Shown here: one piece after another, positions 1 through 402 of the stretch
Layout: each line of letters starts with the position of its first letter
How positions within the stretch are numbered: position 1 is the stretch's first letter
Assembly (NCBI RefSeq): GCF_003334335.1
Contig: NZ_QOWQ01000198.1
Origin: Escherichia coli
GTDB lineage: Bacteria; Pseudomonadota; Gammaproteobacteria; Enterobacterales; Enterobacteriaceae
DNA length: 402 bases
Direction: 5' to 3' (one strand)
The notes under the pieces: generated by a model
The model's input: only the letters and a program-made list of their open reading frames with translations
Databases searched by the model: none
What the model was told of the DNA's origin: nothing
Program-made: the position numbers and the translations under genes

Positions 1-402
1 AATGGCTTTAAGCTGTTCCGCGAAAAACTGGATACCCGTCGCGGCTCAAATTCACAACTCGAAACGGCAGTGAAAGACCTGGGGTCGGTGGTGTCTTTCA
101 AGGGGTATTACGGTGATCTGGCCATTGTGGTGGCGAAAACGTCTTATGTGGCAGAGGACGGTACCGAAAAACGTTATCTGCCGGAGGGCACGCTGGTCCT
201 GGGAAATACGGCTGCTGAGGGCATCCGTTGCTATGGTGCCATTCAGGATGCGCAGGCGTTGTCCGAAGGTGTGGTGGCCTCTTCCCGTTATCCGAAACAC
301 TGGATGACCGTGGGCGATCCGGCCCGTGAATTCACCATGACGCAGTCCGCTCCGCTGATGGTGCTGCCGGATCCGGATGAGTTTGTGGTGGTACAGGTGA
401 AA
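1..402 (+). CDS. Phage major capsid protein, lambda gpE-like (Phage_cap_E family); internal fragment, truncated at both window edges, covering roughly the last 134 residues before the C-terminus
   Basis: Seen in sequence: frame 1 on the + strand is open across all 402 bases (134 codons, no stop), which is why it is absent from the ORF track that lists only bounded ORFs. Codon usage is enterobacterial in style (ctg, ccg, gcg, cgt, gaa and aaa preferred). Established knowledge (from recollection, not a search): the translation aligns co-linearly with the C-terminal region of bacteriophage lambda major capsid protein E, sharing blocks such as EKLDTRRGSNS-LETAVKDLG, KG-YGD-AIVV, LVLGNT, YG-IQDA, RYPK-W-T-GDPAREFTM-QSAPLM and PDEF-VQ. 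Inference: lambda gpE ends a few residues after the PDEFVSVQLA-like motif, so the stop codon probably lies just beyond base 402. Confidence 0.9.

Follow-up and report, generated by a model that had tools for sequence, protein, structure and literature searches.

The 402-base stretch of DNA analyzed here, hereafter called the window, holds the 3′ part of gene E, the major capsid protein gene of a lambdoid phage or prophage (Table 1). Its reading frame continues without a stop across 134 codons, which is the whole length of the window, and covers codons 209–342 of the 342-codon gene, beginning at base 625 of 1029. In the records of Escherichia phage PhiR5_1 and RefSeq E. coli EC2, both of which annotate gene E as a major capsid protein, the stop codon stands directly after base 402 of the window. 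The gene E product is a member of the Phage_cap_E / lambda gpE family of major capsid proteins. The full protein matched the Pfam model PF03864 over its entire length (positions 1–329 of 329; residues 5–341; E = 4.8e-66) and was aligned end to end with the solved structures of lambda gpE (7vi9_A, E = 5.3e-134, spanning residues 1–341; 7sj5_A, E = 4.8e-132). Based on this homology, the protein would be expected to adopt an HK97-like fold and to assemble into an icosahedral shell. The genes around gene E were annotated in a lambda-type order in PhiR5_1 and in the EC2 prophage (portal B-C/Nu3-D-E-FI-FII-Z-U-V-G-T-H, where C/Nu3 stands for protease and scaffold and D for decoration), and gene E occupies the same slot as in lambda, with D on one side and FI on the other. 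The window segment also has C-terminal motifs in common with lambda gpE, such as GDPAREFTM and DPDEFV. The identity between the two is approximately 69% in amino acids and 68% in bases (273 of 402), and lambda itself was missed by megablast because of this low base identity. A much closer relative is gene 7 of phage 21, encoding its major capsid protein, which is identical to the window at 91.3% of nucleotides across its full 402 bases (M81255.1, OL657228.1) and belongs to a phage whose head genes follow the same order as those of the PhiR5_1 and EC2 head modules. Given the distance from lambda at both the protein and DNA levels, the gene can be placed by sequence on the branch of the gpE family that holds phage 21, not with lambda itself. 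The phage 21 allele still differs from the window at approximately 9% of nucleotides, while the exact allele was found in PhiR5_1 and six E. coli prophages.

Table 1. Location of the features described in the text. Positions are those of the window or of the named locus.
Feature	Location	Strand	Frame	Source
3′ part of major capsid protein gene E, phage 21-type lambdoid phage/prophage	window 1..402	+	1	
Antisense ORF (rejected)	window 52..300	−		
GTGGTGG heptamers	window 127, 271, 385			
Head-tail module	L002 13252-32389			
EC2 prophage-end features	L028 11378-12691; L029 5524-7442			NZ_CP058571.1
Two gpE-family matches	L014 3941-4912, 7611-8393	one strand		Kosakonia sp. S29
Pattern match by chance (rejected)	L017 3181-3207			Deltaproteobacteria MAG

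Other elements of the window were also examined. An antisense open reading frame of 82 amino acids with a GTG start was rejected as a by-product of codon bias, and it is unannotated in both PhiR5_1 and EC2. Its frame is aligned with the sense codons, for which stops can appear only opposite the sense codons TTA, CTA, and TCA; these occur 0, 0, and 2 times in the window, respectively. The antisense frame hence stays open because the sense strand contains no TTA or CTA codon, and it ends exactly opposite the TCA at 52–54. A search of Rfam on both strands at a permissive threshold detected no RNA element, where the matches obtained were at chance level (17.4 and 16.6 bits against gathering thresholds of 75 and 50; E = 0.39 and 0.97). 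No Chi site (GCTGGTGG) was present on either strand of the window. The heptamer GTGGTGG appeared three times, each time generated by a Val-Val pair (gtg gtg g).

The initial annotation described a strong preference for six kinds of codons in the window, together with a moderate GC content, and took both as typical of Escherichia-, Salmonella-, or Shigella-type genomes. Three of the six preferences were significant when evaluated against uniform synonymous use, namely ctg for Leu (9 of 11 codons, p = 4e-6), ccg for Pro (6 of 6, p = 2e-4), and cgt or cgc for Arg (7 of 7, p = 5e-4). The preference of Lys for aaa was present (6 of 8), at the same fraction as in typical E. coli genes (0.75), with p = 0.14 when taken alone. 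The term "strong" does not apply to the remaining two: gcg and gcc account for 7 of the 12 Ala codons (gcc 4, gct 3, gcg 3, gca 2; p = 0.39), and gaa for 5 of the 9 Glu codons (p = 0.5). The strongest bias in the window was absent from that list, which is the use of gtg in 13 of 15 Val codons. Further choices were tat (5 of 6), gat (6 of 8), and aat (3 of 3). The description of the GC content was appropriate, as the window contains 56.0% GC, with values of 0.63, 0.43, and 0.62 at the first, second, and third codon positions (GC3 = 61.9%); these are somewhat higher than the GC of 0.533 and GC3 of 0.569 evaluated for a sample of typical E. coli genes. Neither AGC nor AGT was used for any of the 9 Ser residues; these two make up 37% of Ser codons in typical E. 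coli genes (p = 0.03 before multiple-test correction).

The fit of the window to E. coli was evaluated using codon tables prepared from the K-12 genome. Both tables were constructed from small samples of annotated genes, the typical table from 39 genes of the leu-mur-fts-sec-ace region and the high-expression table from 28 genes (ribosomal-protein genes, rpoA, tufA, and fusA). The gsp cluster, which is poorly adapted and putatively foreign, was used for contrast. The score was defined as the mean of log2 P(codon|amino acid) and expressed in bits per codon. The window scored −1.404 on the typical table, followed by −1.560 on the gsp cluster, −1.722 on a table reflecting GC3 only, −1.738 on the high-expression table, and −1.758 on the uniform table. 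Among 159 native E. coli windows of 134 codons, which exhibited a median of −1.502 and a 5–95% range of −1.78 to −1.23, this window was located at the 69th percentile. Not one of 10,000 simulated sequences that preserved the amino acids and chose codons uniformly matched its fit to E. coli (z = 7.9), and the same was true of 10,000 simulations in which third bases were drawn at the frequencies of the window itself (z = 7.6). This indicates that the E. coli-like pattern is real, exceeding both chance and what GC content explains, so that the codon usage reported earlier was E. coli-like overall even where single preferences were overstated. The window falls in the "typical gene" class of E. coli codon usage. 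Its codon adaptation index (CAI), calculated against the highly expressed set, was 0.496, which places it at the 75th percentile among typical genes but below the 5th percentile of the highly expressed class (0.57–0.79 between the 5th and 95th percentiles). All of the 31 native high-expression windows scored better than this window on the high-expression table, and its choices of tat, gat, aat, and gtg are unlike the codons of the ribosomal-protein, EF-Tu, and EF-G class. The window is thus outside the highly expressed class and resembles average to moderately expressed genes. Since its CAI is below that of the highly expressed class, translational selection on the segment, if present, would be modest.

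The resolution with which codons point to a host was examined by using relatives of the gene in other genera. A codon-degenerate 27-base pattern for the motif GDPAREFTM was scanned against 100,044 species, each represented by a single genome, giving 17 loci, of which 16 were real gpE genes or fragments with 57–76% protein identity to the present gene E. All 16 belong to Enterobacterales, and they were found in E. albertii, Citrobacter, Kluyvera, Klebsiella sp., Pluralibacter, Leclercia, Kosakonia, Phytobacter, Dryocola, Trabulsiella, Erwinia, and an Enterobacteriaceae bacterium; no Salmonella match was obtained among the species representatives scanned. The other locus, in a Deltaproteobacteria metagenome-assembled genome (MAG), matched the pattern exactly but exhibited no gpE similarity by tblastn, and was discarded as a chance match. 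By our own estimate, approximately 0.5 such matches are expected for a 40-bit pattern over both strands of 298 Gb, and this case illustrates that matches to a degenerate pattern need confirmation at the protein level. In Kosakonia sp. S29, two gpE-family matches of 43% and 61% identity lie approximately 3 kb apart on one strand, where they may represent remnants of neighboring prophages or the duplication of a capsid gene.

Codon tables of the neighboring genera were prepared from the long open reading frames of these loci, which were called mechanically. The same procedure applied to the K-12 typical locus gave a window score of −1.404, identical to that obtained with the annotated genes. The tables of E. 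albertii, Kluyvera, and Trabulsiella differed from that of E. coli by 2.9–5.4 bits, where 0 lies within each bootstrap interval, and the table of Citrobacter MGH106 differed by 9 bits, with an interval (1.4–17.0 bits) that barely excludes 0. The codon table of phage lambda was also compatible with the window (7.4 bits, interval including 0). The non-enteric tables, for which phage genomes carrying the same capsid family were used as proxies for host chromosomes, were worse by 35–56 bits for Vibrio, Xylella, Burkholderia, Aeromonas, and Proteus phages, and all of their bootstrap intervals exclude 0. The GC3 of the capsid segment in these phages was 0.41, 0.91, 0.87, 0.80, and 0.48, respectively. 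Codon usage alone therefore specifies a host among Enterobacteriaceae of approximately 50–57% GC and excludes the distant hosts, where E. coli was not separable by bootstrap from E. albertii, Kluyvera, or Trabulsiella, and was barely separable from Citrobacter. In other words, a 134-codon fragment is sufficient to place a phage gene in Enterobacteriaceae, while the name of the genus needs nucleotide matches.

Such matches were abundant. A megablast search against GenBank phages gave 20 records, all of them Escherichia phages and all with nucleotide matches of at least 90%. The best was PhiR5_1, which is 100% identical over a feature named "major capsid protein E", and whose record was submitted as that of a complete genome, with E. 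coli C given as the host; no paper on the PhiR phage names was found in the literature collection searched. At the protein level, 21 of 21 phage records with at least 90% amino-acid identity were Escherichia phages. Copies of the window with at least 90% identity were detected in 1,565 of 5,426 complete E. coli genomes (29%), and 100% identical copies in 6 complete E. coli chromosomes. The E. coli copies are nearly all chromosomal, with up to 5 per genome, and are annotated as major capsid protein among the matches listed. The host of the window phage is hence Escherichia coli, for which the genus is fixed by nucleotide identity and not by codons. Of the Escherichia, Salmonella, or Shigella-type host proposed initially, the enterobacterial part was borne out, and E. 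coli was reached through nucleotide identity; codons themselves resolve only Enterobacteriaceae. A separate observation concerns the record MW057783.1, "Campylobacter phage CJLB-4" (48,361 bp, listed host C. jejuni), whose identity and score equal those of the phage lambda records at lambda-like coordinates, and which may represent lambda DNA under a wrong label or from carry-over.

One could suppose that the natural host is another enterobacterial genus, such as Salmonella, Citrobacter, or Kluyvera, and that the copies in E. coli are secondary. The prophage-locus tables of E. albertii, Kluyvera, Trabulsiella, and Citrobacter, lying within 3–9 bits of E. coli, are compatible with such a host, as is the window GC3, which is slightly above that of the E. 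coli sample (0.62 versus 0.57). This is nonetheless very improbable, because every nucleotide match of at least 90% in the phage collection was an Escherichia phage, copies are present in 29% of the complete E. coli genomes, and the relatives in representatives of other genera reach only 57–76% protein identity, with no Salmonella species representative among them.

The chromosomal surroundings are consistent with E. coli as the host. In strain EC2 (NZ_CP058571.1), the prophage contains a capsid-gene segment identical to the window, and E. coli core genes are present on both sides of it, in agreement with the enterobacterial host inferred in the initial annotation, which proposed the flanking sequence as a check; neither the flanks nor the best matches pointed to a non-enterobacterial host. 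On one side, the integrase adjoins a DUF72 (yecE-like) gene near yecN-cmoAB-torYZ-cutC-argS, and on the other side, past cargo genes and IS3, a truncated ompW is followed by yciEFG and the trp operon. The argS-torYZ-cmoAB region and the ompW/trp region are far apart on the K-12 map, and this distance suggests that recombination or inversion between two prophages brought the two flanks together. The cargo at the ompW end includes a gene of a YadA-like adhesin, a gene of an S6-family (SPATE-type) autotransporter peptidase, and IS3. Some of the EC2 prophage genes are decayed, among them a tail assembly gene with a frameshift and coding sequences that are partial.

When the 33 genes of the EC2 prophage were compared, gene E was ranked at the top, both in CAI (0.495) and in its fit when scored on the typical table (−1.385), while the remaining genes reached down to a CAI of 0.284 and a fit of −1.958. 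The earlier suggestion that the sequence is adapted to its host is in line with this ranking, whereas the companion suggestion, that it belongs to a prophage long resident in the chromosome, was not upheld. The latter would ascribe the host-like codons to the amelioration of one prophage over a long chromosomal residence, for which one may cite that the window sequence is mostly found as prophages and that the EC2 copy has partly decayed. Against this, the identical 402 bases are present in PhiR5_1, a phage entered as a complete genome, and the codon table of free-living lambda fits the window about as well as that of E. coli. The fit moreover varies strongly from gene to gene with the capsid gene at the top, a pattern different from that of uniform amelioration. 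We therefore regard a history of amelioration as highly unlikely.

Lucks et al. (2008; PMC2266997) reported an enrichment of host-preferred codons in the head and tail genes of lambda and of many other phages, which persists after controlling for amino-acid sequence and GC3, and attributed it to translational selection on proteins of high copy number. The present observations follow the same pattern, in that the capsid gene has the best fit in its phage genome and the fit of the window survives the control for amino acids and third-base composition. There is no substantive difference from the published cases, to which our result adds one more, based on 134 codons of a gene and on reference sets of small size. 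Phage structural genes have thus been known since at least 2008 to use host-like codons, and the codon pattern of the window is ordinary for such phages, as was already recognized when it was initially noted as context and not as a discovery. Its value lies in fixing the identity of the window, a capsid gene of a phage 21-type lambdoid phage, and its host, against which other findings in the window can be read.

A simpler explanation of the resemblance to E. coli would be a by-product of similar base composition and mutation bias, which involves no selection for host-preferred codons. It gains something from the CAI of the window, which is far below that of the highly expressed class, and from an excess of G-ending codons across the head-tail module that looks compositional (see below). 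The null model that keeps both the amino acids and the third-base frequencies was however rejected by 10,000 simulations, and the GC3-only table fits the window no better than the uniform one. Gene E is also first of 33 genes in CAI despite the one mutational environment they share, and the published GC3-controlled test gives the same result for lambda (PMC2266997). Composition by itself is accordingly an unlikely cause, and translational selection, rather than mutation bias alone, most likely produces the fit to E. coli.

Taken together, the window is best read as ordinary coding DNA for the C-terminus of a gpE-family capsid protein in a temperate lambdoid phage with a head module of the phage 21 type and E. 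coli as its host, whose codon fit would arise through translation in that host, to which we assign a probability of approximately 0.93. By this mechanism, the phage lineage would replicate in E. coli-like cells and have its genes translated by them. The capsid protein is also made in greater amount than any other virion protein, so that translational selection, in addition to a shared mutational background, would favor the codons that E. coli reads well.

A part of the codon pattern is however phage-specific. G occupied the third position at a frequency of 0.40 for the window codons and 0.375 for those of the head-tail module, as compared with 0.295 in typical E. coli genes. This phage-wide excess of G-ending codons is compositional and not a host signature, so that the corresponding part of the codon pattern represents the composition of the phage rather than mimicry of the host. 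One may tentatively ascribe the excess to a constraint specific to the phage that is superimposed on host adaptation, for example, mutation that differs between the strands, or selection tied to late transcription or replication in one direction, though we consider this rather doubtful. If it were true, such a constraint on G would limit the inference of hosts from codons for lambdoid phages. The use of gtg for 13 of 15 Val codons exceeded not only the fraction of 0.37 in typical E. coli genes (p = 1e-4) but also that of 0.55 in the phage's own head-tail module (p = 0.017), and the GC skew along the window was zero or positive throughout, ranging from 0.00 to 0.29.
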